From an uncultured Gammaproteobacteria bacterium (GTDB taxonomy: Bacteria > Patescibacteriota > Microgenomatia > UBA10105), in assembly GCA_964387625.1 (NCBI GenBank), contig CAYLWN010000002.1:39120-78423 (forward strand): a DNA stretch of 39,304 nt. Reading direction: 5' to 3'. A program made the position numbers and the translations under genes. The stretch's first letter is position 1. Each line of letters starts with the position of its first letter. This document shows, in pieces, positions 1,197 to 39,097 of this stretch. The notes under the pieces were generated by a model, which saw only the letters and a program-made list of their open reading frames with translations, was not told the DNA's origin and did not search any database.

Positions 1197-1964
1197 ATGC
1201 AAATAAAAATTCTTTACCAAGATCCTCATTTACTAGTTATTGATAAACCTTTTGGAATTGTAGTTAATCGGGCTGATACAGTAAAAGAAGACACTGTACA
1301 GGATTGGGTGGAAGCTGAATTAAAGATTAACCCGCCTGCTAACGCTTTGCGTAAGCAAATGCGGGCAGGAGATTTAAGATTAAAGAATAAAGATAATGAA
1401 GATTTTTATAATCGAAGTGGAATTGTGCACAGATTAGATAAAGAAACTTCAGGATGCTTGATAATTGCAAAAGATTTTGACAGTTTTATAAAACTACAAC
1501 AAGCTTTTAAAAATCATGCAGTTAAAAAAGAATATATTGCTTTAGTTCACGGGCAACTCAAAATAACTAGCGGTGATATCAATGTACCAATTGGTCGGCT
1601 TCCTTGGAATCGGGAAAGGTTTGGCGTTGTTCCTGGAGGTAAAGCATCACACACCAAATTTTTGGTAACTAATTTCTACCAAAAGGATAAAGAAAATTTC
1701 AGTTTGTTGAAATTGATGCCGACTACAGGTAGAACTCATCAAATACGCGTACATCTTAAATATTTAGGTTATCCTATTGTTGGCGATTATTTATATGCCG
1801 GTAGAAAATTACAGGCACATGACAGAAAATGGTGTCCCAGAGTTTTTTTACATGCTACAAAAATTTCTTTTCCACACCCTCAAACAGAAAAAGAAGTTAC
1901 TATCGAAGCCAAATTACCACTAGATTTACTGCAAATTCTTGAAAGTCTTACGAAAATTAACTGA
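1197..1964 (+). CDS. RluA/RluD-family pseudouridine synthase (no S4 domain), carrying a 13-codon palindromic insertion
   Basis: Motifs VIDKPFG, GIVHRLDKETSG (catalytic Asp), TGRTHQIRVH, PIVGDYLY and LHA. Confidence 0.95.
   Translation: MQIKILYQDPHLLVIDKPFGIVVNRADTVKEDTVQDWVEAELKINPPANALRKQMRAGDLRLKNKDNEDFYNRSGIVHRLDKETSGCLIIAKDFDSFIKLQQAFKNHAVKKEYIALVHGQLKITSGDINVPIGRLPWNRERFGVVPGGKASHTKFLVTNFYQKDKENFSLLKLMPTTGRTHQIRVHLKYLGYPIVGDYLYAGRKLQAHDRKWCPRVFLHATKISFPHPQTEKEVTIEAKLPLDLLQILESLTKIN
1331..1369. repeat. 39-bp GC-rich palindromic element, in frame in the RluA-family gene
   Basis: CCCGCCTGC-taacgctttgcgtaagcaaat-GCGGGCAGG. Same ends and length as 38559-38597. Confidence 0.9.
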
Positions 1965-1977
1965 TATCAGTATTATT

Positions 1978-1996
1978 TACTGAGCTTGTCGAAGGG
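1978..1996. repeat. REP-like unit, CTGAGC-n-GTCGAAG family
   Basis: tactgagcttgtcgaaggg. Related copies at 36267-36290 (reverse), 39100-39131 (reverse, degenerate) and 39142-39161. Confidence 0.65.
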
Positions 1997-2017
1997 TATT
2001 AATTCTTTTTATTTGCT

Positions 2018-2184
2018 GTTACTTTCTCTGCATGCTCCAGAGAAAGTAACCAAAGAGAAGGCAAACCCGTGAAGGTTTTGCAATTTTTCTAAATTCAGAT
2101 AATCAGGTGGAACCTCGGACTATTCAGCCGTATCCACACTTTTATCTTTCATTAAGAAAAATTATGCAAAACACTTCAAGGGTT
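2018..2184. other. Structured intergenic element: 13-bp hairpin plus ~120-nt irregular stem-loop (ncRNA or MITE-like repeat)
   Basis: gttactttctctg (2018-2030) pairs perfectly with cagagaaagtaac (2038-2050). 2064-2090 pairs with 2155-2184 with bulges. Inner agataa/ttatct, gtgga/tccac and cgg/ccg helices. Confidence 0.6.
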
Positions 2185-2268
2185 ATTTATTAAAAAATAA
2201 TTTAACAATACAATAATCGGTATACAATTCTTGCTTAATTTAGCCATTTAATTTACCATAAAATTAAT

Positions 2269-3996
2269 ATGCCCTCAGATATTTTGTTATATTTGCTGAT
2301 TTTATTAATTGCAGCTTTTGTTGGCGGTACTATTTCAAAATCCATTAAACAACCACCGGTGGTGGGCTATTTAATGTCGGGTTTGATTTTGGGATTGATA
2401 TTCGGTAACAATTTCAAAATTTTAACCATAGATTTTTTAGCAGAGTTGGGAATTGTCCTGCTTTTGTTTACATTAGGTTTGGAGTTTCCTTTAGACAGAT
2501 TTAAAAAATCCGGTCAGACAACCGTTATTGCCGCCATTGCTCAAGTATTATTAACTATCATTATTTTATCTATATTGATTACCGGCTTTGGTTTTAGTTT
2601 TTATGCCGCACTTTTTATGGCAACTGCTTTTTCCATGTCATCAACAGCCTTGATTGTTAAAATATTAGGAGATAAAGACGAGATGGAAACCCACCCTTCA
2701 CAAGTATTGATTACCTGGACTGTAACTCAGGACTTAATCGTGCTGCCTTTATTGATAATATTGCCAACTTTAGGTAAAGAATTATTTCAAGGCAGTTTTC
2801 ATTTTTTGGTAATTTTTAGTATATTTAAAAATTTGCTTGTCGCAGGTGTTTTATTATTTATAGTTTTGTTATTGGGTAGAAAATGGGTGCCTTATGCTAT
2901 TGGTAAAATATCTTCCCTAAATAACCGGGAACTGTTATTGGTTGCCATTTTGCTTATCACAATAGCATTTGGATGGTTTACGCAAATTTTAGGTTTTTCT
3001 GTAGAAATTGGTGCTTTCTTAATGGGAATTATGATTGCCAGATCAGCTCAAAATCATGCTGTTTTTTCTGAAATAAGACCTTTACGTGATATATTTGCCA
3101 TGTTGTTTTTTGTAACTTTGGGACTTTTGATTCCCTCAGGATTTATTTTTGCCAATTTCGCAATTATTTTTGAAATGACACTTTTGGTGATCATCATTAA
3201 ATTCATCTTATGTCTGATTTTACTATTTTATCTTGGATTTCATGCCCGCACCTCATTTTTTGTATCCCTAGGACTTATAAATGTAGGTGAATTTGCTTTT
3301 GTTTTGTCCCGTATGGGATTGGCACAAAATTTAATATCTACACATGTTTTTGGTCTGATTGTTTCGGTAACATTATTTTCTATCATATTTTTTCCACCGG
3401 TATTTTTTTCATCAGCTATAATTTTTCAATTTGTTAGGGATTTATTCAAAAAAAGATGGAACGGTATGTATGTTAAAATATTTTCCGGAGTTAATCATGT
3501 TGAAACTTTACCGCAATTGCTTTTAAAAGATCATGTGGTTTTATGCGGATACGGTAGAGTAGGTAAATATGTGGGTAGAGCACTCGAAATGATGCAAATT
3601 CCATATATTGTTGTCGAATATAATCATCAAAAATCCGAAGAACTCAAAGAAAAAGGTATTCCTGTCATTTATGGGGATCCATCAGACCGGGATATATTGG
3701 ATTATGCCCAAGTTGATTATGCAAAGGCTGTCGTGATTGCCATTCCTGATCTTCACACTCAAAGCCAAATTATTGTTAATAGTTTAAATTTGAATTCAGA
3801 AATTCAAATATATTGCCGGACACACAGAGAAGGGGATCAGAAGCTACTTAAAGCCTTAGGAGCCACGTATATTATCCAACCAGAGTTTGAGGCCTCTTTG
3901 TCAATTACTGATAAATTGTTGAAATTATTTGGAATTTCCGGAGAAGATATCAATGGTAAACTGATCCGCTTAAAAATAGAACATGGATTGGGGTAA
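2269..3996 (+). CDS. CPA2/Kef-type cation:proton antiporter with C-terminal TrkA-N (RCK) domain
   Basis: Many TM segments with LAELGIVLLLFTLGLEF, SSTA, QDL and GEFAFVL, then HVVLCGYGRVG and YGD Rossmann-like motifs. Confidence 0.93.
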   Translation: MPSDILLYLLILLIAAFVGGTISKSIKQPPVVGYLMSGLILGLIFGNNFKILTIDFLAELGIVLLLFTLGLEFPLDRFKKSGQTTVIAAIAQVLLTIIILSILITGFGFSFYAALFMATAFSMSSTALIVKILGDKDEMETHPSQVLITWTVTQDLIVLPLLIILPTLGKELFQGSFHFLVIFSIFKNLLVAGVLLFIVLLLGRKWVPYAIGKISSLNNRELLLVAILLITIAFGWFTQILGFSVEIGAFLMGIMIARSAQNHAVFSEIRPLRDIFAMLFFVTLGLLIPSGFIFANFAIIFEMTLLVIIIKFILCLILLFYLGFHARTSFFVSLGLINVGEFAFVLSRMGLAQNLISTHVFGLIVSVTLFSIIFFPPVFFSSAIIFQFVRDLFKKRWNGMYVKIFSGVNHVETLPQLLLKDHVVLCGYGRVGKYVGRALEMMQIPYIVVEYNHQKSEELKEKGIPVIYGDPSDRDILDYAQVDYAKAVVIAIPDLHTQSQIIVNSLNLNSEIQIYCRTHREGDQKLLKALGATYIIQPEFEASLSITDKLLKLFGISGEDINGKLIRLKIEHGLG

Positions 3997-11605: not shown

Positions 11606-12613
11606 ATGACAAATTTATTTACTTATATTGATGATTTTTTGGAATTTTTAGAAGTTGAAAAAAATGTATCTCCATTAACCATCCGAAACTACAAACATTA
11701 TTTGATGAGATTTGCCAACTGGTATAAAGAATCCTCTCCCCTGCCTGCGCCTGACTGCCTGCCTACGCAGTCAGGCGTAGGCAGGCAGTCAGGCCTTTCA
11801 GGTGTCTCTCAAATAAATTCTGACACGATCAGACATTACAGATTATATTTAACCAGGTTAACAGATACACATAATTTGACTCTTAAAAGAGTGACCCAGA
11901 ATTATCATTTGATTGCACTGCGGGCTTTTTTACGGTTTTTAGTCAAGAAAGATATTAAAACTTTGGCTCCCGAAAAAATTGATCTAGGCAAGACAGAATC
12001 GCATAGTTTGAAATTTTTAAATAAAGATCAATTAACACGTTTGGTTAATCAACCGGATATAGCTACTGTTTTCGGCTTGAGGGATAAAGCGATACTGGAA
12101 TTATTATTTTCTACAGGTTTACGGGTATCAGAACTGGTGAAACTAAACCGTGATCAAATAGATTTTACGACACGGGAAATCGGTATTATCGGTAAAGGTG
12201 GTAGAGCCAGGGTGGTATTTATTTCAGACGCCGCATCAAAGTGGTTGCAACGATATTTAAGTTATAGAGAAGATAAATACAAACCTTTATTTGTCCGTTA
12301 TTCAGGAAAAAAAGTTACCAAAGATCAAGGCGAAGAAGGAATCAGGTTATCAGCCAGAAGTATTCAAAGATCTGTTGAAAAATATGTAAAAAAAGCTAAA
12401 TTGCCTATCAAAATTACTCCTCATGGGTTACGGCATACATTTGCCACGGATTTGTTGACAGCAGGAGCTGATATCAGGGCCATACAAGAAATGTTGGGAC
12501 ATAAAAATATTTCCACTACTCAAATATATACACACGTTACCAATCCGCAACTTAAACAAATCCATAAAAAATTCCATGGAAAAACTGAAATAGTTGAAGA
12601 TGCAATTAAATAG
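11606..12613 (+). CDS. XerC/XerD-like tyrosine recombinase with an 18-codon palindromic insertion
   Basis: SAM-like N-domain. Catalytic motifs TGLRVSEL, GKGGRAR, TPHGLRHTFAT and LGHKNISTTQIYTH. Confidence 0.95.
   Translation: MTNLFTYIDDFLEFLEVEKNVSPLTIRNYKHYLMRFANWYKESSPLPAPDCLPTQSGVGRQSGLSGVSQINSDTIRHYRLYLTRLTDTHNLTLKRVTQNYHLIALRAFLRFLVKKDIKTLAPEKIDLGKTESHSLKFLNKDQLTRLVNQPDIATVFGLRDKAILELLFSTGLRVSELVKLNRDQIDFTTREIGIIGKGGRARVVFISDAASKWLQRYLSYREDKYKPLFVRYSGKKVTKDQGEEGIRLSARSIQRSVEKYVKKAKLPIKITPHGLRHTFATDLLTAGADIRAIQEMLGHKNISTTQIYTHVTNPQLKQIHKKFHGKTEIVEDAIK
11740..11793. repeat. 54-bp compound CCTG...CAGG palindrome in frame in xer
   Basis: Perfect 20-bp IR 11749-11768/11775-11794, with an alternative 19-bp IR 11740-11758/11767-11785 (1 mismatch). 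Confidence 0.9.
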
Positions 12614-12617: not shown

Positions 12618-13367
12618 ACAGGTCGGACCTGTTATGGAGATGGATGTGATGATATAAATTAAATTTTTATCGTATATGCCGGCAAAAAATTCTATAAAAC
12701 AATACGTTGAAAATAGCTTCTATCATATTTACAATCGGGGCGTTGATAAACGAATAATTTTTATTCAGGATTTAGATTATCAAATGTTTCTTTCATATTT
12801 AAAAAATTACTTGTCAACATTGTCTTTACAACAGGTCCGGCCTGTAAGAAAATCCACTCTTTTTTTAGAAATTGATTTAATCGCTTATTGTCTGATGCCA
12901 AATCATTTTCATTTATTGATTAAACAAAAATCAGCCAAATCAATAATTAAATTTATGCGTTGTTTAACAAATGCATACACGCGATATTTTAATACCAGAC
13001 ATAAAAGAATTGGTCATTTATTTCAAGGAAAATATAAAGCAAGTTTAATAACAGAAGATTTATATTTACTACAACTATCTCGTTATATACATAGAAATCC
13101 ATTAGAGTTATTCAGGTCAGACCTGCATAAAATATTGTCAGAATACCCTTATTCAAGTTATAAAGATTTTTTAGGATTAAGAAACACTGTTTGGGTGAAG
13201 CCAAATGAAGTATTAAATTTTTTTGCATTAGATAAGCAAAAAAATAATTTAGATTTAAATTATCAAGGTTTTGTTGAACAATTTAATAAAGACGAAAATG
13301 ATATAAACGAATTTATCTTAGAAGACAATGTCGAATGATAACAATCTAAACAACAGGTCCGATCTGT
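12618..13367 (+). mobile_element. RAYT module: Y1 transposase bracketed by inverted 15-bp palindromes, with two more copies inside the gene
   Basis: ACAGGTCGGACCTGT (12618-12632), ACAGGTCCGGCCTGT (12831-12845), CAGGTCAGACCTG (13113-13125) and ACAGGTCCGATCTGT (13353-13367). Confidence 0.8.
12676..13338 (+). CDS. REP-associated tyrosine (Y1/HUH) transposase, IS200/IS605 TnpA superfamily
   Basis: YHIYNRG, AYCLMPNHFHLL (HUH), YFN...GHLFQGKY, YIHRNP (catalytic Tyr) and YPYSSY. Confidence 0.92.
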   Translation: MPAKNSIKQYVENSFYHIYNRGVDKRIIFIQDLDYQMFLSYLKNYLSTLSLQQVRPVRKSTLFLEIDLIAYCLMPNHFHLLIKQKSAKSIIKFMRCLTNAYTRYFNTRHKRIGHLFQGKYKASLITEDLYLLQLSRYIHRNPLELFRSDLHKILSEYPYSSYKDFLGLRNTVWVKPNEVLNFFALDKQKNNLDLNYQGFVEQFNKDENDINEFILEDNVE

Positions 13368-27075: not shown

Positions 27076-29084
27076 TGAGTAAAATATTAAGAGGAGAAAA
27101 ATATACTGCCCTAATAATCAGTATATTATTTCTCCTCTTTTATATCTATTTTCAATCCTCAAGCGTGTTTGGCGGAGATGCAGGAGATTTAGTATCTGCA
27201 GCTCTAATGAAGGGCGTAGCACATCCTCCGGGTTATCCTTTATATACTTTTTTGGGCTGGTTATTGACCAAAATTCCTATTTCAACTGTTGCTTGGCGTG
27301 TGGGATTATTATCTAGTATTCCTTCAGCAATAAGCCTGGGTTTGATATTTCTTACGTTAACAAAACTTACAAAACATTTTATTGCATCAATTATAGGTGT
27401 TTTTATTTTAGGTTTTTCCTATCTGTTTTGGTTATATGCAATAGTTCCTGAAGTGTTTGGTTTAAATACTTTGTTTGTTGCCTTGCTTTTTTATTTATTA
27501 TTATTATACAGAGATACTGGTCATAGAAACATTCTTCATATTTCAAGTTTTATTTTTGGTTTATCCCTCACGCATCATCATGTAATTTTATTTATTATTC
27601 CGGCATATATTTTATTGATAGTAAATCAGCTCAAAAAAATAAAAAATACCGAAAAAACATTATTGATAAATTGTGGATATATTTTATTAGGTTTGACACC
27701 ATATGTTTATGTATACCTATCAGCTAAAGGCAATCCTCCAGTTAATTGGGAGAATCCTCAAACGGTTCAAAGTTTTTTGAATTTAATAAGCAGGTCGTTA
27801 TATGGTTCTTTTCAATCTCATAAAATATTTAATGTTTCTATTTACGAAAGAATTTTTCAATTAAAAATAATGTTTGATACTTATCTGATTGATTTTACTA
27901 AACTGGGAATTGCTCTTGCTTTGATTGGTATGTGGAAAAACTTCAGAGAAAATAAAAACATATTTTTATGTATAGTTGCGTTTTTCTTATTGTCAGGACC
28001 AATATTTATTTTTTATGCGGGTTTTCCTTCATCTAGTAATTTTTTCTTAGGAACATCTGAACGTTTTCTTCTTACATCATATATTTTTATTACAATTTGG
28101 ATAGTGTATGGCATCAAATCTATTACAACAACAATTGACAATCTTCTGCAAAAAATAACATCCAAAAAAGTATTTATAAGTTCGATTATGATATTTCCCC
28201 TTTTTGCATTATTAATTTTATATGGAAACTGGATAAAACTTTCTCCAATAAAAAATGATTTTACAGCTGAAAAATTAGGAAAAGACATATTTAACACAGT
28301 ACCTGATAATTCAGTAATATTTTTTTCCGATGATACGTCTACTTTTGATTCACTTTATGTATATTATGTAGGTGGTGGAAAAAAAGGATGGCGGGGAATA
28401 AAGCATGTTCAGACAGGCATCATTTCTAGCAAATTTTATAACGATATTCTCAAAAGAGAATTTCCTGAAATGTTAATAGAGCTGGATAAAGGAAACCTTA
28501 ATTTTACGAAATTTGTAGATGATTATATTGACGTATACCCTATTTATTCATTCAATATTATGGCTGTTAGTAAAAAATATACATGGGTTCCTGATGGCTT
28601 GATGTTTAGATTATATAAAACTAGCGATGTGCCTTTGCAAGATGAATTTAAAAAAAGAAGTATTTTTTTATTTTCCCAGTATCAAAACCCGCTAAAAGGT
28701 GCTTTAGGTGTTTATAAACACGTAATGTTGGCCGACGTATTGAGAGTATATGCAACAGCCCATATAAGAACTGGACAAATATTTTATAACTTTACTGATT
28801 ATGAGCAGGCAGAAAAGCATTTTTTGGAAAGCATAAATTTACAGGGCGACGACTATAATAATTATTTATTTTTAGCAGATACTTATATTGTACAAAAAAA
28901 ATGTGCCGATGCCGAGAATATTTTATTTCAACAAGTAGCGTTATATTCCAATATTCCGGAAATTGATAAAAATATAGTCAAGGTATATAAAGAATGTTTT
29001 CATGATCAAGCGAAAACAGATAAATACCAAAAAATTTATGATGAAAAAGTGAAAAAAAGCAACATCCAACTTAATCAATTTTAA
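27075..29084 (+). CDS. DUF2723/TMEM260-like GT-C glycosyltransferase with C-terminal TPR
   Basis: GGDAGDL...GVAHPPGYPLY, PEVF, THH and NWENP motifs, multiple TMs and a TPR-like tail. ATG 27075 overlaps the pilin stop (TAATG). Confidence 0.85.
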   Translation: MSKILRGEKYTALIISILFLLFYIYFQSSSVFGGDAGDLVSAALMKGVAHPPGYPLYTFLGWLLTKIPISTVAWRVGLLSSIPSAISLGLIFLTLTKLTKHFIASIIGVFILGFSYLFWLYAIVPEVFGLNTLFVALLFYLLLLYRDTGHRNILHISSFIFGLSLTHHHVILFIIPAYILLIVNQLKKIKNTEKTLLINCGYILLGLTPYVYVYLSAKGNPPVNWENPQTVQSFLNLISRSLYGSFQSHKIFNVSIYERIFQLKIMFDTYLIDFTKLGIALALIGMWKNFRENKNIFLCIVAFFLLSGPIFIFYAGFPSSSNFFLGTSERFLLTSYIFITIWIVYGIKSITTTIDNLLQKITSKKVFISSIMIFPLFALLILYGNWIKLSPIKNDFTAEKLGKDIFNTVPDNSVIFFSDDTSTFDSLYVYYVGGGKKGWRGIKHVQTGIISSKFYNDILKREFPEMLIELDKGNLNFTKFVDDYIDVYPIYSFNIMAVSKKYTWVPDGLMFRLYKTSDVPLQDEFKKRSIFLFSQYQNPLKGALGVYKHVMLADVLRVYATAHIRTGQIFYNFTDYEQAEKHFLESINLQGDDYNNYLFLADTYIVQKKCADAENILFQQVALYSNIPEIDKNIVKVYKECFHDQAKTDKYQKIYDEKVKKSNIQLNQF

Positions 29085-30693
29085 AAGACTTCTTTTTATA
29101 GATAAATATATTAGATTCTTTCGGATAATTTGTGATTGGTTTAAAGGAATGAAGAAACAATTCAGGTCGAGACATGTCATAAGCATATGTAGGTATAATA
29201 ATTTCTTCATAATTATCCAGATTTGCGTTTATTGGTAAAGGGCGCCAGTCATAGTGTTGAATTTTTCCAAACATAATTATCCAATCAGGAGGCTCAGGAT
29301 CATTATATACATAAGCAGGTAACCAAGCTTTATTCTTAGAAAGAATTTTGTTATTAGAAGGTGAAATACGATTAATAAACCTGATTTTATCATCTAAATA
29401 AAATTGTAAAGGTTCAGTATTGTAATCAGGAGTAACAAATACAGTTTCGTTTCTTTGAATATTTTTGTTTAAATAATTTACTGTAACTTCTGTTGATGTT
29501 TTATATGATGAATTGGTAATCTCATGAAAATATGCAAACAACCAAGACTGGGAAGGAAATTTAAGAGATAAAACAGTAGTAAATAAATATAATCCGATAA
29601 CCATGAAACCTAAAATTTTACTTGACGAGTAAATTTTTTCTAAAACAAAACCAATAAGTAACAATAGCAACGGATAAATATTCATTGCATATCTGATATC
29701 AGAATGTGTAGTGAAATCAAGATTCTGTGTAGAAATAAAGGAAAAAAATAAAATATATAGTAAACATGTGGTTGATATAAATAAAATTTGTTTTTTAACT
29801 TTTTTATTTTTCAAACTCTGGACATATAGAATAAAAAACATTACCAATATTATTGGAATTCCTCCATTTCCATTGAAATCAGACAAATACCGTAAAAATA
29901 AATCTAATGCATTTGAAAAATTGAAATTTACTAACGCATAACCACTATTTCCTTCCCAGGGGCGTAAAATTATAAACCAAGGAAGAGTAAATATAATAAT
30001 TATTATACTCGGCAAAAGCAGCTTTTTTACCAAATAAATAATATTGATTTTTAAAATCAAAGAGGAAATAACCAGTGCTAAAAAAAAAGCAAAAAAGGAA
30101 GAGTAATTACTATAAAAAAAAGCAATACAGGCAATGATTAAATATTTCATATTAAATTTTTCTTTATTAAGGATAGATATGAAAAAATTAATCAATAGAA
30201 TTGATGTTAATGAAGTTAATGCATAATATCTGGTTTGATATGCATATAAAATAAACGGAACAGAAATACTGATAGCAATTACGGTTAACATTGTAGCTTT
30301 AGAACTTTGTGTTATTCTGAGCGCAAGTTTAAACAAAAATATAACAGTTAAAAGAGATAAAATGACAAATGGCAACCGGGCTGTAAAAGTAGAAATTCCA
30401 AAAATTGCGAAAGAAACTGCAGTCATATAATATTGTACCCATGGTGATGTATGATTAACTAAATTTTCGTTAAGTGTAATTCCGTTATAGATGCCCATGA
30501 TATTTGTTCCATCCCATCCATAAGGAATACCATATTTTAAAATGTTTTTTGCAAATAGAGCAGTTTCTGCTTCATCTCCCCACAAGGGATGTTTGACCAT
30601 TCCCACATACACAAAGAGAATAAAGATTAAATAAAATAATATAATTACAGGTTTATGTTTTATAAAACAATATAAGCCATTAATAATTTTCAT
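29071..30693 (-). CDS. ArnT/PMT-like GT-C membrane glycosyltransferase
   Basis: TM1 followed by LWGDEAE, FGISTFTARLP, QTRYY and RY motifs, then a periplasmic C-domain. Confidence 0.8.
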   Translation of the reverse strand: MKIINGLYCFIKHKPVIILFYLIFILFVYVGMVKHPLWGDEAETALFAKNILKYGIPYGWDGTNIMGIYNGITLNENLVNHTSPWVQYYMTAVSFAIFGISTFTARLPFVILSLLTVIFLFKLALRITQSSKATMLTVIAISISVPFILYAYQTRYYALTSLTSILLINFFISILNKEKFNMKYLIIACIAFFYSNYSSFFAFFLALVISSLILKINIIYLVKKLLLPSIIIIIFTLPWFIILRPWEGNSGYALVNFNFSNALDLFLRYLSDFNGNGGIPIILVMFFILYVQSLKNKKVKKQILFISTTCLLYILFFSFISTQNLDFTTHSDIRYAMNIYPLLLLLIGFVLEKIYSSSKILGFMVIGLYLFTTVLSLKFPSQSWLFAYFHEITNSSYKTSTEVTVNYLNKNIQRNETVFVTPDYNTEPLQFYLDDKIRFINRISPSNNKILSKNKAWLPAYVYNDPEPPDWIIMFGKIQHYDWRPLPINANLDNYEEIIIPTYAYDMSRPELFLHSFKPITNYPKESNIFIYKKKSFKID

Positions 30694-30742
30694 TATCTTA
30701 TAAACTATTGCTTTTTACCAATAAAGTCAATAAACTACAAAT

Positions 30743-32932
30743 GTGAAAAAATGGTTTTCTGACAATAAAATTGATATTCTATTTATAGTTACATTAATTG
30801 GATTAGTTTTTTTGTTTTTATATAGATTATTTTTACCCCACCCTCGTTTAATAGTTACTCCTGATTTTATTAAAAGCGATGCTTGGCATATTTTCATAGC
30901 AGGAAAATATTTATTACAACAATCTTTGATAAATCACACTTTTCCGATATGGACAAATCTGCTAGATTCAGGATTTCCATTACTTGGAGAAGGACAAGTG
31001 GGAATGTTTTTTCTTCCAAATATATTATTATTTGGATTTTTTGATTTTATAACAGCATTTAATCTTAGTCTTTTATTGTCTTTTTGTTTGATTGGAATAG
31101 GTATGTACGTTTGGTTAAGATCAATGAAGTATTCTTATTTACCTTCCTTTTTTGGAGCAGTTACATTAGAGTTTTCCGGAATTATGATCGCACATCTTAC
31201 TCATCAAGCTTTGATTCAGGGATTAAGCTTATTGCCTTGGGTGATGTGGGCAAGCTTGATGATATATAAAAAACAGAGTGCATTTTGGTTAGGGGTATTT
31301 GCTCTTTTTGCTTCACAACAATTATGTTCCGGTTTTCCACAAACATCAGTAGTTACATTATTATTTACTGGTAGTTATTATTTGTGGCTTGTATGGTTAT
31401 CACCACAAAAATTGAATAAAATATGGAGGTTCATTTGCGCAGTTTTGTTAACTATTGGATTATCAGCTGTTCAAATACTGCCTTCTCAGGAATATATTAA
31501 ACATACATCAGCTGAATATGGATTAGCGTTGCAGGATGCAACCAGATATTCTTTTTCTTTACCCCATTTAATGACATTTTTAAATCCATTTATTTTGGGA
31601 AATCCTCAAAATGGTACATATCCTGAGTTATTAAAAAATGGAGAAAATATTTTTTGGGAAAACTCGGGGTATATCGGTTTGATTCCTTTTATATTTATAG
31701 TTATTTTGTTTCTTTTTAGGAAAAAAACTCAATTTAGGGGAAAAAGTCTCAGTTTATTTTTATTATTTTCACTTATTATTTCATTTTTATTAATGTGGGG
31801 AAAATATTCACCATTTTATCTGCTTTATTCCTGGTGGCCACTAAACCAGTTTCGTGTACCAGCCAGATTCATTTGGATCTTTGACGTGTCTTTAATATTA
31901 TTAGCTGTTCAAGGATTTGAATTTACAATAATTTCCATCAAAAAAAATCATATACTAAAATATGTTCTAATTCTGTTGATAATCATTAATACTGGAGATA
32001 TATTCATAAATTGGTGGAATTATCACCTTTTGGGATCAAAAGATGAATGGTTAAATAAGCCGTCACTATCAAAATTGATAAACAATCAAGACAGAATAAC
32101 ATCATTATTCTTCGAGTATGATTATGAAAATCAATATAATAAAGGTTGGCAAGATAGTGAACCATTTGAATTTTTGCAAAACACGCTTTCACCTAATTCA
32201 AATTTACTATGGGATATACCCAGTAATGGCATAACAGGCGGAAGATTTTTAAGAAGATCTACCTATGTTGATAATTTATTTATGGATTCAATTTTAATAT
32301 CTACAAATAGTGCCTCTATGAGCTCAATTTCGATTAACTTATTAAAACTTCAGTCAGTTGATAAAATTATTTCTACAATACCTCTTAAAAGCAATGAGTT
32401 AAAACAAGAAATTTTGTTAACAAAAAACGATATTAATATATATTTATACTCAATAAATGATAGTATACCACGCGCATATTTGACAACGAATTTTGAAGTT
32501 GCCACAACTTTAGAAGAGGCGCAGGTAAAACTAATAAACAAGAATTTCATTGCAGGAAAAAGCGTCTTATTGGAAGAAAATATAAACATAGAAAATGGTC
32601 AAAAACAAGGTAAAGTAGAAATTGTTGAGAATAAAGATTTAATTATAAAACTAAAAGTTACTGACAATCAGGCAGCATCGGTTCTAGTGTTAGCAGATAC
32701 TTATTATCCAGGATGGGAAGCTAAAATAGACAATATGTCAACAAAAATATATCCGGCAAATATTAGGCAAAGAGCTGTTATCGTACCTCAGGGAAATCAT
32801 GAAATTGTATTTGAATATAAACCAAAAAGTTTTTTAGCTGGGGTATGGATTAGCGGAATAAGTTATTTAGTAATTATTTTTTATGGAATTTATAAAGCTA
32901 TTTTGTATCAAAAAAAATATTCAACAAAATAA
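30743..32932 (+). CDS. YfhO-family GT-C membrane protein
   Basis: PIW...SGFPLLGEGQ, YIG, FRVPARF, PRAY and LVLADTYYPGWEAKID...VPQGNHEIVFEYKP. GTG start. Confidence 0.88.
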   Translation: MKKWFSDNKIDILFIVTLIGLVFLFLYRLFLPHPRLIVTPDFIKSDAWHIFIAGKYLLQQSLINHTFPIWTNLLDSGFPLLGEGQVGMFFLPNILLFGFFDFITAFNLSLLLSFCLIGIGMYVWLRSMKYSYLPSFFGAVTLEFSGIMIAHLTHQALIQGLSLLPWVMWASLMIYKKQSAFWLGVFALFASQQLCSGFPQTSVVTLLFTGSYYLWLVWLSPQKLNKIWRFICAVLLTIGLSAVQILPSQEYIKHTSAEYGLALQDATRYSFSLPHLMTFLNPFILGNPQNGTYPELLKNGENIFWENSGYIGLIPFIFIVILFLFRKKTQFRGKSLSLFLLFSLIISFLLMWGKYSPFYLLYSWWPLNQFRVPARFIWIFDVSLILLAVQGFEFTIISIKKNHILKYVLILLIIINTGDIFINWWNYHLLGSKDEWLNKPSLSKLINNQDRITSLFFEYDYENQYNKGWQDSEPFEFLQNTLSPNSNLLWDIPSNGITGGRFLRRSTYVDNLFMDSILISTNSASMSSISINLLKLQSVDKIISTIPLKSNELKQEILLTKNDINIYLYSINDSIPRAYLTTNFEVATTLEEAQVKLINKNFIAGKSVLLEENINIENGQKQGKVEIVENKDLIIKLKVTDNQAASVLVLADTYYPGWEAKIDNMSTKIYPANIRQRAVIVPQGNHEIVFEYKPKSFLAGVWISGISYLVIIFYGIYKAILYQKKYSTK

Positions 32933-32933
32933 T

Positions 32934-34559
32934 TTATAATTCTTTTTTTTGTGCAACTATCATTTGAATTGGTGAGCCATTAAATAAATAGAAAATATAT
33001 GTGATTGGGAACAATATTACACTTAGTGTTAATAACACTATTGATAATATAGCCGTTTTAAACCACGATTTATATTTAGCAAATAAGTTTAAATTAGGTG
33101 ATATCAGATACAGAATACTCTGGGCAAATCCTAACGGTATATATTCAGGAGCATAGATAGATTTATTATCAATAATTCTAAAACCTTGTTTTTTAATAAG
33201 GTCAATCAACCCGGAGGGTGTGTAATGAAACATATGTCTAGGTGGATCTAAATGAAACCAGCGGTCACCAAAAAGATATTTTTCCCACGAGTTAAAATTG
33301 GGACATTCTATTATGAGATATCCTTTATTTTTCAGTAACCGATATGACTTTTTTAATGCTTTTAGCGGATATTTTAAATGTTCAAAACTTTCCCAAAAAG
33401 TTACAAAATCGAATGAATTATTTTTTTCTTTTATGCCTTCTATTCCGACAGTTTTGATTTTAAGATTTTTAATCTTAGCAAAAGGTGTTTCTATACCTAA
33501 ATAATTATATTTATCAGCATCAAGTTGATCGCCAATACTCCCATCTCCACATCCAATATCTATTATATTACCGTTATTTTTTAAAGATTGAATAATTTTT
33601 GGACGACGTATTTGAAGAATTTTATAAATTACAGTTTTTATTCTTGAATAATAAGTTGACGTGTAAAACTTGGATAAGTTTTCAGGTTGCGGATACGCAC
33701 ATCCTATTTTACACGGAGTACAAAAATTAATAGAAAAGTTTTTATGACTGACAGCATCTGTGACTTTATATTGTTTACGTACGATATTGCTTGTACAGAG
33801 AGGACAAATAGCAGTTTTAACTTTTAAAAAGGGACCGTTTGGACTGTGCATAAATTTAGCTTTAATATATTGATATAAAGTCAAAAATGTACCCAGTGCA
33901 TAAACTGAGCTTCGACGCATATTTGCAGTATGCATTTTGGAATGATAATCACATTGAACTTGTACTTCAGCCACCCTAAATTTGTAATAAACTGCCTGAA
34001 CTATTATTTCAAAACTGAATAAATAATCATCTGAATTTTGTTTATAAGGAATATTTTCCAGTAACTTTCGGGTATACATCCGGAAGCCGGAATGAAATTC
34101 AGTTAATTCTATACCCAAAACAAATTGATCTATAAACGACAAAGATCTGTTGGCAATAAATTTAATAAGTGGCATTTTGTGATCAAGAGCTTCTTTAGGG
34201 TGAATAAAGCGTGATCCGATAGCCAAATCAAAACCAGATTTTGCTTTCTCAATATATAAAGGTAAATTGATAGGATCGTATTGATTGTCTGGGTGATATT
34301 CGATAATAATGTCAGCACCTGCTGCCAAGGCTTTTTTAAAACAAACTTTTAAATTTCCTCCATAACCTAAATTAATGCTGTTTTTAAATACCTGTATATT
34401 CAGTTTTTTGGCAATTGCATAAGTATTATCAGAAGATGCATCATCAACTAAAATAACTCGGTTTATATATTTATGAGGCAGTCGTTGGTAAGCTTTTTTT
34501 AAAGTTTTTGCAGCATTATGAGCAGGCATAACTACAATTACCTTTGGGTGTTTTTTCAT
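32934..34559 (-). CDS. GT2 (polyprenyl-phosphate glycosyltransferase-like) fused to a Zn-ribbon class I SAM methyltransferase
   Basis: N-half: VVMPAHN, LVDDASSD, NLGYGG, GSRF, SGFRMY. C-half: CPLC..CTPC, IDIGCGDG, FEH, HLDPPRH. Confidence 0.88.
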   Translation of the reverse strand: MKKHPKVIVVMPAHNAAKTLKKAYQRLPHKYINRVILVDDASSDNTYAIAKKLNIQVFKNSINLGYGGNLKVCFKKALAAGADIIIEYHPDNQYDPINLPLYIEKAKSGFDLAIGSRFIHPKEALDHKMPLIKFIANRSLSFIDQFVLGIELTEFHSGFRMYTRKLLENIPYKQNSDDYLFSFEIIVQAVYYKFRVAEVQVQCDYHSKMHTANMRRSSVYALGTFLTLYQYIKAKFMHSPNGPFLKVKTAICPLCTSNIVRKQYKVTDAVSHKNFSINFCTPCKIGCAYPQPENLSKFYTSTYYSRIKTVIYKILQIRRPKIIQSLKNNGNIIDIGCGDGSIGDQLDADKYNYLGIETPFAKIKNLKIKTVGIEGIKEKNNSFDFVTFWESFEHLKYPLKALKKSYRLLKNKGYLIIECPNFNSWEKYLFGDRWFHLDPPRHMFHYTPSGLIDLIKKQGFRIIDNKSIYAPEYIPLGFAQSILYLISPNLNLFAKYKSWFKTAILSIVLLTLSVILFPITYIFYLFNGSPIQMIVAQKKEL

Positions 34560-35795
34560 TTAGTTAATTGTTACTTTGGGGACAGGAATGATAAATTTAC
34601 CACCTTGGACTTTGTATTTTTTTTCTTTATCCATAATTTCAAATGCAAAATTCCATGCAAGTATCAGTATATAATCAGGCTTAGTTTTCATTATTTCTGC
34701 TTCCGGAAATATGGGGATATGAGTTCCGGGAGTAAATAATCCCTGCTTATATGGTGTGGAATCGACAATATAATCTATTAATTTATCATTTATATGACAA
34801 TAATTTAATAATATATTTCCTTTAGCTGCTGCTCCATAACCTGCTATTGTTTTTCCTTGTTTTTTTATTTTTTTTAATGTTTTCTGCAGATTATCAGAAA
34901 CATGTTTAACTCTTTTGGCAAATTTTTGATACGTGGAAAAATTGTATAAACCATAATTATTTTCATTATCCAATAATTTTTTAATTTTTGCATTAATTTC
35001 TAATTTGATATTTTTTTTCTTAAAAACAACCCGCAATGATCCTCCGTCAATATTTGATCTAAAAACATCAAACAATTCAAGATTTACCCGCGAAGTCAAT
35101 TTTATTAAAGGTTTAATGGAAAAATATGATAAATGTTCATGATAAATCGTATCAAACTGATTATTTTTAATTAAATCCAATAAATATGGAAATTCACAAA
35201 TAAATACCCCATTAACTCCTAATAGAATTTCTACAGATTTAAACAAATCATATAAATTATCTATGTGAGCAACTACATTTGTGGCTGTTATAACATTTGC
35301 CTGTCCGTATTTTTTGTAAATTTTTTTAGCCAGCACGGGAGTAATATAATTATTGATAGTTGTTATACCTTTAAGTTCTGCAATTTTCGCTAAATTTACA
35401 GCAGGATCAATGCCCAAAGTTTTTATACCATATCCTTTAAAATAGGATAATAAACTACCGTCATTGCTTCCGATATCAATAACTAAAGAATTGTGGTTAA
35501 GTTTAAAATTTTTATTAGCGTATTCTGCAATTTCTGAAAAATTATTCATTCTGGTTTTGGAAGTTGAAGGAATGTATACATAGTTTTTAAACATTTCATT
35601 CGGATTAACAATTTCTTGAAGTTGTACTAGTCCGCATTTTTCACAAAGGCATGCATTTAGTGGAAAATATTTTTCAGGTTTACTTAACTGATTTTTAGTC
35701 AAAAAACCATTTGGTAAAGGAATGTTTCCAAGAGTTAAAAATAATTTTAGATTTGGATTACCGCAGATTCGGCAAGCTTTAACTTTTTTATACAT
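34560..35795 (-). CDS. NDP-hexose C-methyltransferase family (Zn-binding, SAM-dependent)
   Basis: CRIC...CEKCGLVQL, IDIGSNDG, ATNVVAH, FDTIYHEHLSYF, GYGAAAKG, KQGLFTPGTHIPI and LAWNF. Confidence 0.9.
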   Translation of the reverse strand: MYKKVKACRICGNPNLKLFLTLGNIPLPNGFLTKNQLSKPEKYFPLNACLCEKCGLVQLQEIVNPNEMFKNYVYIPSTSKTRMNNFSEIAEYANKNFKLNHNSLVIDIGSNDGSLLSYFKGYGIKTLGIDPAVNLAKIAELKGITTINNYITPVLAKKIYKKYGQANVITATNVVAHIDNLYDLFKSVEILLGVNGVFICEFPYLLDLIKNNQFDTIYHEHLSYFSIKPLIKLTSRVNLELFDVFRSNIDGGSLRVVFKKKNIKLEINAKIKKLLDNENNYGLYNFSTYQKFAKRVKHVSDNLQKTLKKIKKQGKTIAGYGAAAKGNILLNYCHINDKLIDYIVDSTPYKQGLFTPGTHIPIFPEAEIMKTKPDYILILAWNFAFEIMDKEKKYKVQGGKFIIPVPKVTIN

Positions 35796-35960
35796 AAGAA
35801 ATTGAAAATATTTTTACATTATAAGTCTTTATTTGTTATATCACAATAAGATTTAAATAATGTTCACGTCCATCTGTTCATCCCCCGGGTGTGCTAACTT
35901 GACACTTCCCGATTTGGATTATTTACGGTTTTTTTATGTAATTTATGATAATCTAAAATT

Positions 35961-36857
35961 ATGATCATTTTTATTATCGGATTTATTTTTATAATTGGAC
36001 TGTTTATCGGTTCATTTTTAAATGTGTTGATTGATAGACTGCCTCTTGAAAAAAATCCCTGGAAAGGCAGAAGTAAATGCGATTTTTGCAATCATTCGCT
36101 ATCTCCTCTTGATTTGATACCAATATTTTCATTTATAATACTTGGCGGTAAATGCAAGTATTGTCATAAAAAGTTATCATTCCAATACCCATTAATTGAA
36201 ATATTAACAGGGATTATGTATGTGAGTATTTTTGTTAATATTTCAAAATTATCAAACGTTCTAAATCCCTTCGACTTTGCTCAGGGAATAAAACTAACTG
36301 TCTTAAGTCTTCCTGTTTTATTGTCATATTTGTCTTTATTAGTCATTTTCTCTTCCTTTCTCGTTATCTTTGTTGCAGATGTCAAATATCAAATCATTCC
36401 TGATGAAATGCTGGTGAGTTTGGGAGTTGGAGTATTGTTGATGCTGGTAAGCAAGATTCCCGCTTTCGCGGGAATGACAATTAGGGGGGAAGATTCTTCG
36501 TTGGCATTCAGAATGACAACGGGGATGTTTAGAATAGCGATCCCCTATTTATTATCAGGTTTAACAACCGGTTTATTTTTCCTAACTATTTATTTAGTCA
36601 CAAAACGTAAAGGTATGGGGTTTGGAGACGTAAAATTAGCTCCACTTTTAGGATTATTTTTAGGATTTCCAAAAATAATTGTTAGTCTTTATATAGCTTT
36701 CTTGACAGGTGCAATTTTTTCAATCATACTGATTATATTAGGCAAAAAAGAGTGGAAAAGTAAAATTGCCTTTGGACCATTTTTGATAATCGGAGCGAGT
36801 TTAAGTTATTTTATCGGCGATTTAATCACAAAATGGTATATGAATTTTTTTCTATGA
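35961..36857 (+). CDS. pilD: Prepilin peptidase with REP-derived in-frame insertions
   Basis: GSFLNVLIDRLP, RSKCDFC, GKCKYC, YPLIE, D..YQIIPD, GMGFGDVKL and IAFGPF. Confidence 0.95.
   Translation: MIIFIIGFIFIIGLFIGSFLNVLIDRLPLEKNPWKGRSKCDFCNHSLSPLDLIPIFSFIILGGKCKYCHKKLSFQYPLIEILTGIMYVSIFVNISKLSNVLNPFDFAQGIKLTVLSLPVLLSYLSLLVIFSSFLVIFVADVKYQIIPDEMLVSLGVGVLLMLVSKIPAFAGMTIRGEDSSLAFRMTTGMFRIAIPYLLSGLTTGLFFLTIYLVTKRKGMGFGDVKLAPLLGLFLGFPKIIVSLYIAFLTGAIFSIILIILGKKEWKSKIAFGPFLIIGASLSYFIGDLITKWYMNFFL
36267..36290. repeat. CTGAGC/GTCGAAG-family REP (reverse) inside pilD
   Basis: cccttcgactttgctcagggaata, encoding PFDFAQGI. Confidence 0.7.
36454..36518. repeat. Two tandem GTCAT-family REP halves inside pilD
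   Basis: agattcccgctttcgcgggaatgaca (36454-36479) and agattcttcgttggcattcagaatgaca (36491-36518). Confidence 0.85.
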
Positions 36858-37402
36858 AAAAATACAAATTCGCAATGCCTTTCGTCAGGCAGGGGTTTAC
36901 CATGATTGAGTTGCTTATAGTTGTCGCATTACTGGGTATTTTAGGTACGGTTGGTGTTACTTCATATACAAATAGCTTGAAAGTTGGCCGGGATGCCAAA
37001 CGTAAAACCGATTTAGAAACTATCAGACAAGCTATGGAAATGTATAAAAGCGATTTTTCAACCGTTGGTTATCCTGATGCAATTTCAGGATCAGCTAAAA
37101 CCAGTAATTGTAGTTTATATAGAAGACTTGAGTGTTGTTTAACCTTATCTGGAACCGGTGCATGTTCTGTGCTTCCTTACAAAAGCAATGTTTATATTTC
37201 TCCAGCGAATTTTCCTAATGATCCGAAAAACAATCTAAATAAAAATGACTACTATTATCAGCGTTTGACTGCAAACACATATGTGTTAGGAACAATATTG
37301 GAAAATCCTCCAGCTACTGTTGATCCTACATGTGCAACTTATGACTGTAATACTATTAATTTTGGTGTTCAACCATGTAATTATTGTTTATCTCAGCCTT
37401 AA
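36854..37402 (+). CDS. Type IV pilin / GspG-like pseudopilin
   Basis: QG|FTMIELLIVVALLGIL, RDAKRKTDL, YP and PNDP; Cys-rich. ATG 36854 overlaps the pilD stop (ATGA). Confidence 0.9.
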   Translation: MKKYKFAMPFVRQGFTMIELLIVVALLGILGTVGVTSYTNSLKVGRDAKRKTDLETIRQAMEMYKSDFSTVGYPDAISGSAKTSNCSLYRRLECCLTLSGTGACSVLPYKSNVYISPANFPNDPKNNLNKNDYYYQRLTANTYVLGTILENPPATVDPTCATYDCNTINFGVQPCNYCLSQP

Positions 37403-37408
37403 ATCAAT

Positions 37409-37897
37409 ATGATAACTGCCTCTTCTGAATATAAAAATATTCTCAAAACAGGTTTTACTTTATTGGAAATCATGATCTCAATAACTATTATTGGGCTGCT
37501 ATTTACCGCAGGGCTTGCCAGATACATGGATTTTAATAAGACTCAGACTCTTAAGTCTTCGGTTTTGGATTTAAAAAATAATTTACGTGATATTCAAGCC
37601 AAAGCTAATTCTGGGGTCAAGCCTACTGGTTGTACCGGAACTTTTATAGGCTATGTAGTGCACTATATATCGACTACACAATATAATGTTTATGCAGATT
37701 GTATTACTACTAATGGTGCAATTAAAACCTATACTTTAATTGCGGGTACAAAATTTAATGCTTCATTTGCCGATATTACTTTTCTCGCATTAAATAAAGG
37801 TGTTAGTCCTGCTCCTACCACAATAACTATAAAACATACAGTGAATAATAAAACTGTAAATTTAAATATCACTGCTAGCGGAGAAATTTATGATTAA
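37409..37897 (+). CDS. Minor pilin (FimT/GspH-like)
   Basis: TG|FTLLEIMISITIIGLL and C-terminal ITASGEI. Confidence 0.88.
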   Translation: MITASSEYKNILKTGFTLLEIMISITIIGLLFTAGLARYMDFNKTQTLKSSVLDLKNNLRDIQAKANSGVKPTGCTGTFIGYVVHYISTTQYNVYADCITTNGAIKTYTLIAGTKFNASFADITFLALNKGVSPAPTTITIKHTVNNKTVNLNITASGEIYD

Positions 37898-37929
37898 ATT
37901 GTGAAGAAATACATTAAAACTTATTTGTT

Positions 37930-38385
37930 ATGCAAGTAATCAAATTTGGTAAAAATAACCAAGGTCAAGCCTTGCTAGAAGCAATTGTGGCTTTTGGAGT
38001 AGTTGCATTGGTTTTGGTGGCTTTGATTTCCGCAATTACTGTATCACTGGCAAATGCCCAATATGCCCGTAATAAAGCTCAAGCTACAAAATATGCTCAG
38101 GAAGCCATTGAATGGTTGCATCAACAAAGAGATACACAAACTACCGGTTGGTCAGGTTTTTACACAAAAGCAGGCGCAACATATTGTGTCAATAATTTAA
38201 GCAATTATTCCAGTATGACTGCTTCTTCATGCAGTACAAATATGACTGGTACAATTTTTGAAAGAGAAATGACTTTAACAGGAAACGTAGCAAGTGATAA
38301 AGTTACAGCTTTAATTAATGTTACATGGACTCAAGGAGCAAGAACTGCAAAAGTAGATTTAGAAACGGTTTTAACAAAATGGTAA
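37930..38385 (+). CDS. Minor pilin (PilV-like)
   Basis: QG|QALLEAIVAFGVV, ATKYAQEAIE and VTW. Confidence 0.85.
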   Translation: MQVIKFGKNNQGQALLEAIVAFGVVALVLVALISAITVSLANAQYARNKAQATKYAQEAIEWLHQQRDTQTTGWSGFYTKAGATYCVNNLSNYSSMTASSCSTNMTGTIFEREMTLTGNVASDKVTALINVTWTQGARTAKVDLETVLTKW

Positions 38386-38395
38386 TTTTTAACAC

Positions 38396-38458
38396 GTCAT
38401 TCCCGACCTGATCGGGAATCTTATTAATTTTTAAGATCCCCGCATTCGCGAGGATGAC
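38396..38458. repeat. Intergenic REPIN-like doublet (GTCAT family)
   Basis: gtcattcccgacctgatcgggaatct (38396-38421), a 12-nt AT spacer, then agatccccgcattcgcgaggatgac (38434-38458). Confidence 0.88.
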
Positions 38459-38485
38459 AATTATTAGTTTAGTTTTGTAATTGAT

Positions 38486-39097
38486 ATGAAGATGCTAAGA
38501 TTTATGAGAAATTCAATAATCCAGAATCCCTGCCTCGCCGGCAGGCAGGCAGAATCCACCCGCCTGCCATCGCTATGCTCAAGCATTAGCGGGCAGGGAA
38601 TCACTAGAGTTGGTTTTACCTTGGTTGAGACTTTGGTTACACTTGTTTTAATAGGAACAATTGGTTTAATTGCTTCAATTTCTTTGTTTAATTTGTTATC
38701 AGGAAGTGCAAAAACCGAAATTGTTAAAGAAATCAAACAAAATGGAGACTACGCCTTATCAACAATGGAGCAAAATATTAGAAATGCAACTGATGTGTAT
38801 TATTTAGTAGGAGGTGTAAAAACATGTGCAGGTACATCTATCGACCTTTACATTATTCAACCTTCACAACCTGCAACACCGATTCATTATTCCTGTTCTT
38901 CTGGAAGTTTATATGTTGATGGAAATAGTTTGACTAGTGATAAAGTTGTCGTTAATCCCTGCACAGGAGTTTTTACCTGCAATAAGGATGTTAATGGTTT
39001 ATATAAAAATGTAATTATTAATTTTGTTTTGGAAGACGCACAAAACTCATCTGTCAGTCAGACATATAAAACAGAAATCAGGTTGCGAAATAAGTAA
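38486..39097 (+). CDS. Minor pilin (PilW/PulJ-like) with a leader lengthened by two palindromic insertions
   Basis: VG|FTLVETLVTLVLIG, IRNA and C-terminal LRN. The start could be ATG 38504. Confidence 0.88.
   Translation: MKMLRFMRNSIIQNPCLAGRQAESTRLPSLCSSISGQGITRVGFTLVETLVTLVLIGTIGLIASISLFNLLSGSAKTEIVKEIKQNGDYALSTMEQNIRNATDVYYLVGGVKTCAGTSIDLYIIQPSQPATPIHYSCSSGSLYVDGNSLTSDKVVVNPCTGVFTCNKDVNGLYKNVIINFVLEDAQNSSVSQTYKTEIRLRNK
38529..38597. repeat. Two CC(T/C)G...CAGG elements (21 bp and 39 bp) within a (CCAGAAT)3 array
   Basis: cctgcct-cgccggc-aggcagg (38529-38549) and cccgcctgc-N21-gcgggcagg (38559-38597). Confidence 0.92.

Follow-up and report, generated by a model that had tools for sequence, protein, structure and literature searches.

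A genome-wide family of short GC-rich hairpin repeats in a Patescibacteria genome is associated with heptamer arrays and shares a 21-mer with distant phyla

Contig CAYLWN010000002.1 (C2) belongs to a 1.24-Mb Patescibacteria assembly of 86 contigs with 33% GC and 90% completeness, and its positions 39120-78423 form the stretch of 39,304 nucleotides analyzed here, hereafter called the window. Five GC-rich palindromes scattered over the window are genuine copies of one dispersed hairpin-repeat family. An initial annotation made from the window alone had described these palindromes; it had missed that the family is present genome-wide, that it is one of several in the genome and that one of its variants, a 21-mer, occurs in several phyla. 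The new and surprising result is that a single 21-base hairpin, with the same heptamer habit, is letter-identical in distant phyla. We propose that the palindromes are probably very small, non-autonomous dispersed hairpin repeats which are copied to new sites and favour DNA that is easily unpaired. DNA of the window was detected in groundwater and soil metagenome runs.

The hairpin family and its association with heptamer arrays

A census of perfect GC-rich hairpins (stem of at least 7 bp, loop of at most 10) returned 208 hits in the genome, compared with 9 in a control genome shuffled in 60-bp blocks. Several palindrome families coexist, and among the other families a 16-mer is the commonest genome-wide; it has 38 exact copies, many of which lie within larger palindromes. 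A tolerant census assigned 90 copies to the family studied here: 39 of an 18-mer type (up to two mismatches allowed), 11 20-mers, 15 21-mers and 25 copies of a long form of 30-42 bp. Common to all forms is the foot CCTGCC(T)...(A)GGCAGG; copies start with CCTG or CCCG and finish with CAGG. The 20-mer is a perfect palindrome, from which the 18-mer differs by the lack of the central CG and the 21-mer by one additional C. In the long form, CCCG precedes a CCTGC(C)...GGCAGG foot that encloses an upper hairpin; this upper hairpin varies in sequence between copies with its pairing retained or compensated (22 folded long copies). Forms longer than this are nested composites. Family lengths include 18, 20, 21, 30, 36, 38, 39, 40 and 42, and the observation of the initial annotation that all five lengths are multiples of three therefore does not extend to the whole genome (20, 38 and 40). 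As read from the sequence, the short forms contain no stop codon in any frame. The flank consensus is limited to a pyrimidine at position +1 (70 of 76 copies), and no Rfam family was found in the window at the gathering score.

Coordinates and lengths of the five window copies, as first annotated, were borne out by a regular-expression check and by direct reading. A 39-bp long-form copy (1331-1369, forward strand) lies in frame in rluA; when folded, it consists of CCCG, a CCTGC stem, a variable upper hairpin and GGCAGG. It contributes about 13 extra residues (PPANALRKQMRAG), placed in a variable loop, and adjoins a heptamer array with the unit AGATTAA (3.6 copies, 1370-1394; Tandem Repeats Finder, TRF) which extends to the left past the insert. 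The gene for a xer-type tyrosine recombinase carries, also in frame, a nested composite of 54 bp (11740-11793) that contains a perfect hairpin with a 20-bp stem (11749-11794) and encodes about 18 extra residues. An 18-mer copy with two substitutions relative to the canonical sequence (24028-24045) occupies the spacer after a stop codon at 24004, within an A-tract array of period 7. The remaining two copies share the long leader of a type IV pilin-like gene (open reading frame 38486-39097). Here, an exact 21-mer, the 20-mer with one C more (38529-38549, forward strand), is inserted in frame to the right of CAGAATC-type heptamer units (38515-38528), and a 39-bp long-form copy (38559-38597, forward strand) splits a further CAGAATC unit; one and a fraction of these units (38550-38558) separate the two.

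Both pilin copies sit upstream of a G/FTLVE processing motif, and we would expect the leader to be cleaved off together with the two palindromes. The gene is the last of four tandem type IV pilin-like genes at 36833-39097, and its unusually long leader of about 42 residues consists mostly of the two inserted palindromes. A decayed copy had also been suggested near 36874-36893. This site belongs to the leader of an adjacent pilin-like gene and has only the right-arm 8-mer CAGGCAGG (36886-36893), with the left arm missing. Chance alone would yield about 0.2 8-mers of this kind in the window (arithmetic); it is a weak candidate for a remnant.

For the analysis of flanking periodicity, each copy was deleted in silico and the joined 21+21-nt flanks were scored for self-similarity at lag 7, with the 99th percentile of random sites (0.486) as the threshold. 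Four of the five window copies lie in heptamer arrays, with scores of 0.71 (1331-1369), 0.63 (24028-24045), 0.63 (38529-38549) and 0.57 when both pilin copies were deleted; the xer copy has no heptamer context (0.34). Genome-wide, 25 of the 90 copies exceeded the threshold, compared with 1% expected. Passes were frequent for the 21-mer (10/15) and the long form (10/25) and rare for the 18-mer (4/39) and the 20-mer (1/11), while lags 5, 6, 8 and 9 yielded just 0-3 passes per subfamily. In an independent overlap test, TRF heptamer arrays of at least three copies were touched by 12 of 179 palindrome loci, against 1.5 on average and never more than 6 over 500 randomisations. The heptamer association is real and specific to lag 7. 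This agrees with the original proposal of non-autonomous micro-elements in heptamer arrays above chance and with the genome-wide enrichment over controls that it predicted; the further statement that most copies are found in heptamers holds for the 21-mer and the long form, but not for the 18-mer and 20-mer.

Heptamer arrays are themselves abundant in this genome. We counted 91 arrays of at least four copies versus 1 after codon shuffling of the genome; no other period is as common as 7 among arrays of this size, and 84 of the 91 have four to five copies. The units AAATTCG and AAATTCT recur among them, and many arrays are intragenic and encode peptides with a periodicity of seven residues.

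The family pattern was found in 24 of 40 relatives, copy numbers among the 40 ranging from 0 to 29, and the exact 18-mer in 10 of the 40; a reversed control pattern matched in 1 of 41 genomes searched. At least 119 stretches of a species-representative genome collection contain the exact 21-mer, whereas about 0.3 chance matches are expected (arithmetic, equal base frequencies). The results on copies of other genomes, called foreign below, refer to the matches among these stretches that were listed (80 loci). Numerous lineages of Patescibacteria are represented, as are Bacteroidota (cultured isolates among them), Elusimicrobia, Omnitrophota, Ignavibacteria, Planctomycetota, Acidobacteriota and uncultured Gammaproteobacteria. 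Of the foreign 21-mers, 19 of 79 passed the lag-7 threshold versus 1.4% of controls, and the heptamer sequences around them are mutually unrelated. The largest cluster of neighbouring proteins, glycosyltransferase-like, comprises 5 of the 80 loci, and small GIY-YIG genes lie near the 21-mer at 4 of the 80. Two further small clusters (4 and 3 loci) consist of what we take to be four-helix-bundle proteins. A viral vector for the 21-mer was considered and rejected, the viral collection containing only 3 stretches with it.

Reading frames, orthologues and sites of insertion

Host genes were named by reading their translations, and a frame was called open from 150 codons upwards. Such frames cover 85.5% of the genome, and a random 21-bp segment falls well within one in 75% of cases. 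The same is true of only 69 of the 179 palindrome loci, which means that palindromes are depleted from genes overall. The subfamilies differ: all 15 21-mers are inside open frames, as are 15 of 39 copies of the 18-mer type, 9 of 25 long forms and 2 of 11 20-mers, and the figures for the 21-mer and the 20-mer fit frame selection. Within frames, the length of the long form is divisible by three in 8 of 9 cases, the exception being a badly delimited composite; outside frames 10 of 16 are multiples of three and the remaining six measure 38 or 40 bp. The multiple-of-three pattern is a residue of purifying selection and no intrinsic property of the element. The caution expressed in the initial annotation, that lengths divisible by three leave frame selection unproven, was warranted.

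The hosts are ordinary housekeeping genes (gatB, recG, tsaD, transketolase, rho, argS, an ATP-dependent ligase, fpg, trpS, glmS, trxB, a copper ATPase, rluA, xer and a pilin), and the frames stay open through the copies for hundreds of codons. Among the foreign 21-mers, 44 of 82 lie in long frames, and 27 of these 44 use two of the six possible frames, reading PASPAGR or xLPAGEAG; this preference points to selection on the translated peptide. An orientation bias relative to genes, 13:2 in this genome, was dropped as a sign of strand-specific insertion since the ratio is 21:23 in the foreign copies.

Orthologues without inserts were found for rluA, xer, gatB and tsaD. The 13 extra residues in rluA are missing in all four relatives of the same family that were aligned, and the loop which holds them is variable in all 25 sequences aligned. 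The xer product is about 18 residues longer than in three relatives of the same family recovered by pattern. In gatB and tsaD, the insertions fall in loops that are short or filled with different repeats in relatives. The inserts appear to add translated peptide to proteins, and the earlier suggestion that new peptide is written into proteins is supported.

Two loci bear on the order of events. In the rluA loop, heptamer arrays without a palindrome are present in five relatives from several genera. In a spacer between two genes of the genus g7, the arrays differ in copy number across four genomes, one of which contains a 21-mer whose immediate flanks are unlike each other and show no duplication. 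Both comparisons favour arrays that existed before insertion. A 7-bp direct repeat with at most one mismatch flanks 6 of 13 own 21-mers and 14 of 78 foreign copies, compared with 0.5% of random junctions, and nothing comparable exists at 6 or 8 bp. We rejected this repeat as a target-site duplication, an interpretation contradicted by the g7 spacer, where usable orthologues exist. Moreover, any cut in a 7-bp array receives identical heptamer flanks, so that the repeat is uninformative on this question. Blunt insertion without target-site duplication, as originally claimed, is suggested by the one orthologous g7 spacer and unreadable within periodic arrays.

Copies are also found within other structures. 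The flanks of foreign 21-mers pair over 6 bp or more in 9 of the 79 copies, versus 2.7% of controls, and in several Flavobacteriia the 21-mer is located inside the loop of one identical other palindrome. In the genome studied here, long copies occupy D-loop or T-loop positions of tRNA-gene fragments that adjoin intact tRNA genes. Outside the window, long or composite copies lie in partial tRNA genes at C3 9125-9314, C6 341-396, C25 9262-9299, C80 1373-1412 and C22 12051-12091 (contig numbers as in C2), and the interrupted fragments are at most about 300 bp away from intact genes for tRNA-Val, tRNA-Ala, tRNA-Pro and tRNA-Asn. ARAGORN and Infernal call the intact neighbours only; the interrupted pieces were therefore treated as fragments, and the idea that long copies interrupt functional tRNAs was rejected. 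Arrays, hairpin loops and tRNA loops all represent easily unpaired DNA, from which we infer that targeting may be directed by structure.

Three side observations concern RNA genes. The same outer tRNA-like 5' piece recurs at two loci around different tRNA-Val genes. At C22 12120-12350, a GIY-YIG-type open reading frame (about 80 residues) has on one side a 28-nt copy of the tRNA-Asn 5' end, itself split by a palindrome, and on the other the intact tRNA-Asn gene; the locus looks like a small mobile insertion that has duplicated the tRNA 5' end. Furthermore, a 20-mer is embedded in a conserved, apparently non-coding GC-rich segment of two relatives (G006 and G013; loci L240 and L241), which could be an RNA gene.

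Candidate enzymes and competing explanations

The genome encodes three Y1 (HUH) proteins of 219-238 residues with PF01797 matches above the Pfam cut-off; all three stay below the NCBIfam cut-off for the REP-associated tyrosine transposase (RAYT; REP, repetitive extragenic palindromic). One of them, a RAYT-type Y1 transposase-like gene, is located in the window directly downstream of xer (12676-13338, forward strand; PF01797 47.8 bits, cut-off 23), and its best NCBIfam match is the REP-associated tyrosine transposase (46 bits, cut-off 80). It is bracketed by a 15-nt hairpin of another family upstream (12618-12632) and a matching 15-nt hairpin downstream (13353-13367). The remaining two (C38 and C64) are likewise bracketed by pairs of small hairpins of other type, which implies that the cognate repeats of these enzymes, if any, are not the family studied here. 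One of the three Y1 genes adjoins glmS, which bears a long copy. A canonical gene of the IS200 type (IS, insertion sequence) was not found in this genome.

Among the relatives, a Y1 match is present in 22 of 24 with the family and in 9 of 16 without it, kin not being independent. Exceptions are G019, G021, G023 and G020: G019 has 8 copies and no Y1 match at 98% completeness, G023 has 9 Y1 matches and no copies, and G020 has a strong IS200-type gene and no copies of the family. In G013 and G031 (loci L233, L236, L242 and L245), a multi-copy IS200-like element lies where several contigs break. The hairpin at its left end is built on the 7-bp stem of the family, CCTGCCT/AGGCAGG; in sister copies of the element, other stems with compensating changes occur. 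This shared stem is the best single hint of a link to Y1 enzymes, yet it is one coincidence. For the enzyme, the leading though tentative candidate is a Y1/HUH transposase that acts on hairpins in single-stranded DNA.

In the explanation we prefer, the family would be non-autonomous, nearly neutral DNA that is copied into new sites and lands preferentially where DNA is easily unpaired or prone to slip: in short 7-bp tandem arrays, in centres or loops of other palindromes and at loop positions of tRNA-gene fragments. Intragenic survivors would be frame-preserving insertions in tolerant surface loops or in cleaved leaders, translated as short peptides rich in Pro, Ala, Gly, Arg and Cys. Mobility, translation of the copies and targeting by structure are inferred in this explanation.

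Several observations weigh against it. Outside a heptamer context lie 65 of the 90 copies, and arrays and palindromes may co-occur merely because variable loops and spacers tolerate both. In gatB, 11 order-level relatives lack the entire block, about 25 residues long, in which heptamers stand on both sides of the 21-mer. Four copies (in gatB, in the ligase gene and two more) have a near-identical right flank, and tsaD contains a perfect 35-bp tandem duplication made up of the 21-mer plus two units. These three cases imply that composites are copied too, or that arrays grow after insertion. The orthologues are 50-78% identical, so that junctions cannot be fixed to the base, and only the g7 spacer gives a loose view of one. 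No presence/absence allele was seen: among the pieces listed for contigs of four runs, aligned to 19400-39304, none has an indel at a copy. Contigs drop rare variants, and this result does not prove that indels are absent. No gene recurs beside the 21-mer across phyla in the 80 foreign loci. Finally, letter-exact conservation across phyla, as seen for the 21-mer, is uncommon in junk DNA and may indicate a function.

The initial annotation had suggested a RAYT-type driver. Spelled out as a mechanism, a RAYT or IS200-type Y1 transposase would nick and rejoin single-stranded hairpins at the replication fork and insert them into heptamer arrays without target-site duplication. The three PF01797 matches, with one gene in the window and one beside glmS, the distribution of Y1 genes among the relatives, the stem shared with the IS200-like element and the g7 insertion without flanking duplication speak for it. 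However, the hairpins around the three Y1 genes differ from the family, no IS200-type gene was found in the genome, G019 has copies without a Y1 match, and G023 and G020 have enzymes without copies. In addition, the copies bear no GTAG or CGTC end tag, the +1 pyrimidine is the sole flank signal, and the foreign copies are balanced in orientation to genes. We regard this driver as possible but doubtful. Alternatively, no dedicated enzyme may be involved: slippage, template switching at hairpins and gene conversion would then let repeats accumulate where changes in length are tolerated. The excess of heptamer arrays over the codon-shuffled genome, the varying copy numbers in the g7 spacer, the tsaD duplication and the hot-spot loops of gatB and tsaD, which hold different repeats in each relative, would all be explained, and an over-representation of heptamers in many bacteria has been ascribed to polymerase slippage in the sections consulted of PMC4692102. 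On the other hand, identical 18-21-mers occur at dozens of unrelated sites in many phyla, for which a repeated origin de novo is impossible, gene conversion requires homologous flanks that most copies lack, and the subfamilies differ sharply in context. We consider an origin by replication errors alone unlikely.

A selected, non-selfish signal, in which the conserved stem is a protein-binding site or a hairpin for RNA processing or termination, would fit the letter identity of the 21-mer across phyla, the copy just past a stop codon at 24028 and the clustering of copies by tRNA genes. We consider it improbable, as all 15 21-mers are inside housekeeping genes at non-orthologous places, orthologues are insert-free, copy numbers range from 0 to 29 among relatives and Rfam gave no match in the window. 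That the palindromes are artefacts of assembly or sequencing, which had been named as a possible refutation, is hardly credible. In the stretch covered, 19400-39304, to which the copies at 1331 and 11740 do not belong, the copy at 24028-24045 is spanned without gaps by contigs of three runs that stem from other samples and studies, and contigs of two runs span 36874-36893; no bridging contig was found among the pieces listed for the copies at 38529 and 38559. Moreover, the elements are likewise present in genomes of isolates and in the assemblies of many laboratories, and open frames run through the copies for hundreds of codons.

A more far-reaching version of the preferred explanation is that an 18-21-bp hairpin is horizontally mobile across phyla, inserted in a structure-specific manner by a widespread enzyme into looped-out DNA (slipped 7-bp arrays, other hairpins' loops and D- or T-loop positions of tRNA genes), and acts as a general writer of loop peptides. 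We rate this as rather unlikely. If true, the over-represented heptamer arrays of bacteria would be landing pads or partly a by-product. Mobility of the 18-21-bp hairpins, if real, would in itself place them near the lower size limit of transposable units and would expose essential proteins (GatB, TsaD, RecG, ArgRS, Rho, DNA ligase and others) to recurrent length variation in very small genomes. The abundant, sharply defined and cross-phylum family offers a way into the long-known problem of how heptamer arrays and small repeats arise. In practical terms, the copies break contigs, raise the number of "hypothetical" peptides and disturb the alignment of marker proteins from metagenome-assembled genomes.

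Comparison with known repeats and further features

The closest precedent comes from cyanobacteria, Nostoc punctiforme among them, whose small dispersed repeats (SDR) are reportedly hairpins of 21-27 nt, often embedded in tandem heptamers and nested in each other. They resemble the family in being dispersed hairpins of about 20 nt (compensated pairing is seen here in 18-, 20- and 21-mers and in the long form), in their embedding in tandem heptamers (here 25 of 90 copies and 12 of 179 loci), in their nesting (here the xer composite, stem-forming flanks and loops of other palindromes), in an occasional intragenic position and in having no known enzyme. The claim that heptamer targeting had no earlier description does not hold. 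SDR differ in belonging to another phylum with, judged by description, apparently other sequences, whereas the family studied here resides in frame in housekeeping genes at large scale and includes one variant that is identical across many phyla. The excerpt of PMC2884548 consulted mentions SDR of cyanobacteria.

Rickettsia palindromic elements, too, are inserted in frame in unrelated metabolic genes and translated as extra peptide, according to passages of the review PMC10969869, and this is what they share with the family. They are described there as about 150 bp long, confined to Rickettsia and coding for a conserved peptide, whereas our repeats measure 18-54 bp, cross phyla, use all frames and are associated with heptamers. 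A likeness to REP and REPIN elements with their RAYT enzymes, as far as portrayed in the available text of PMC3116915, consists in multi-copy GC-rich palindromes of 20-40 bp together with RAYT-like Y1 genes in the genome. One end of REP elements with a RAYT is marked by the tetranucleotide GTAG or CGTC, as stated in the abstract of PMC3733652, whereas the family starts with CCTG or CCCG and ends with CAGG. REPs are furthermore extragenic, unlike the family with 69 of 179 loci and 15 of 15 21-mers in open frames, and they flank their own RAYT gene, whereas the three Y1 genes here are flanked by other hairpins.

Elements of the IS200/IS605 group and their derivatives recognise hairpins and produce no target duplication; the derivatives have two distinct ends, are about 100 bp or longer and are inserted beside a fixed target of 4-5 nt. 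The related element with the same 7-bp stem in G013 and G031 is a point of likeness. In contrast to such derivatives, a single hairpin of 18-21 bp is the whole unit here, the flank signal is limited to the +1 pyrimidine, and no autonomous partner with the same hairpin was found in this genome. Compared with miniature inverted-repeat transposable elements, which have terminal repeats of a parent IS, a target duplication and a size of 50-500 bp, the units are only 18-42 bp long, no parent IS was found and the g7 spacer site has no duplication.

GC clusters of mitochondria resemble the family as short GC-rich palindromes scattered through an AT-rich genome, some of them in genes or beside tRNA genes, and in having no established mechanism. 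They differ in being organellar and lineage-specific in sequence; we know of no heptamer association of these clusters. Mobile GC clusters or hairpin elements have been reported from AT-rich mitochondrial genomes of yeasts, other fungi and sponges, as outlined in the parts seen of PMC8811140 and PMC2800124.

Heptanucleotide repeats are over-represented in bacteria, vary between close relatives and have been explained by slippage (PMC4692102, in the extract used), and dispersed elements of four heptamers within and between genes were described in Geobacter metallireducens (PMC2700814, likewise in extract). The arrays reported here, with about four to five heptamers inside or between genes and lengths varying among relatives, are similar; palindromes inserted in arrays are not described in the extracts of these two reports. 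Neither elements of this kind in Patescibacteria nor a micro-palindrome common to several phyla were described in the literature searched.

Further features lie outside the family. An ARAGORN-predicted tRNA-Lys(ttt) gene at C35 3151-4473 has a 1228-nt intron after position 38. The window itself contains GC-rich palindromes of other families at 24204-24217, 38401-38417 and 38436-38455, and additional heptamer arrays are located at 22087-22118 and 25203-25233.

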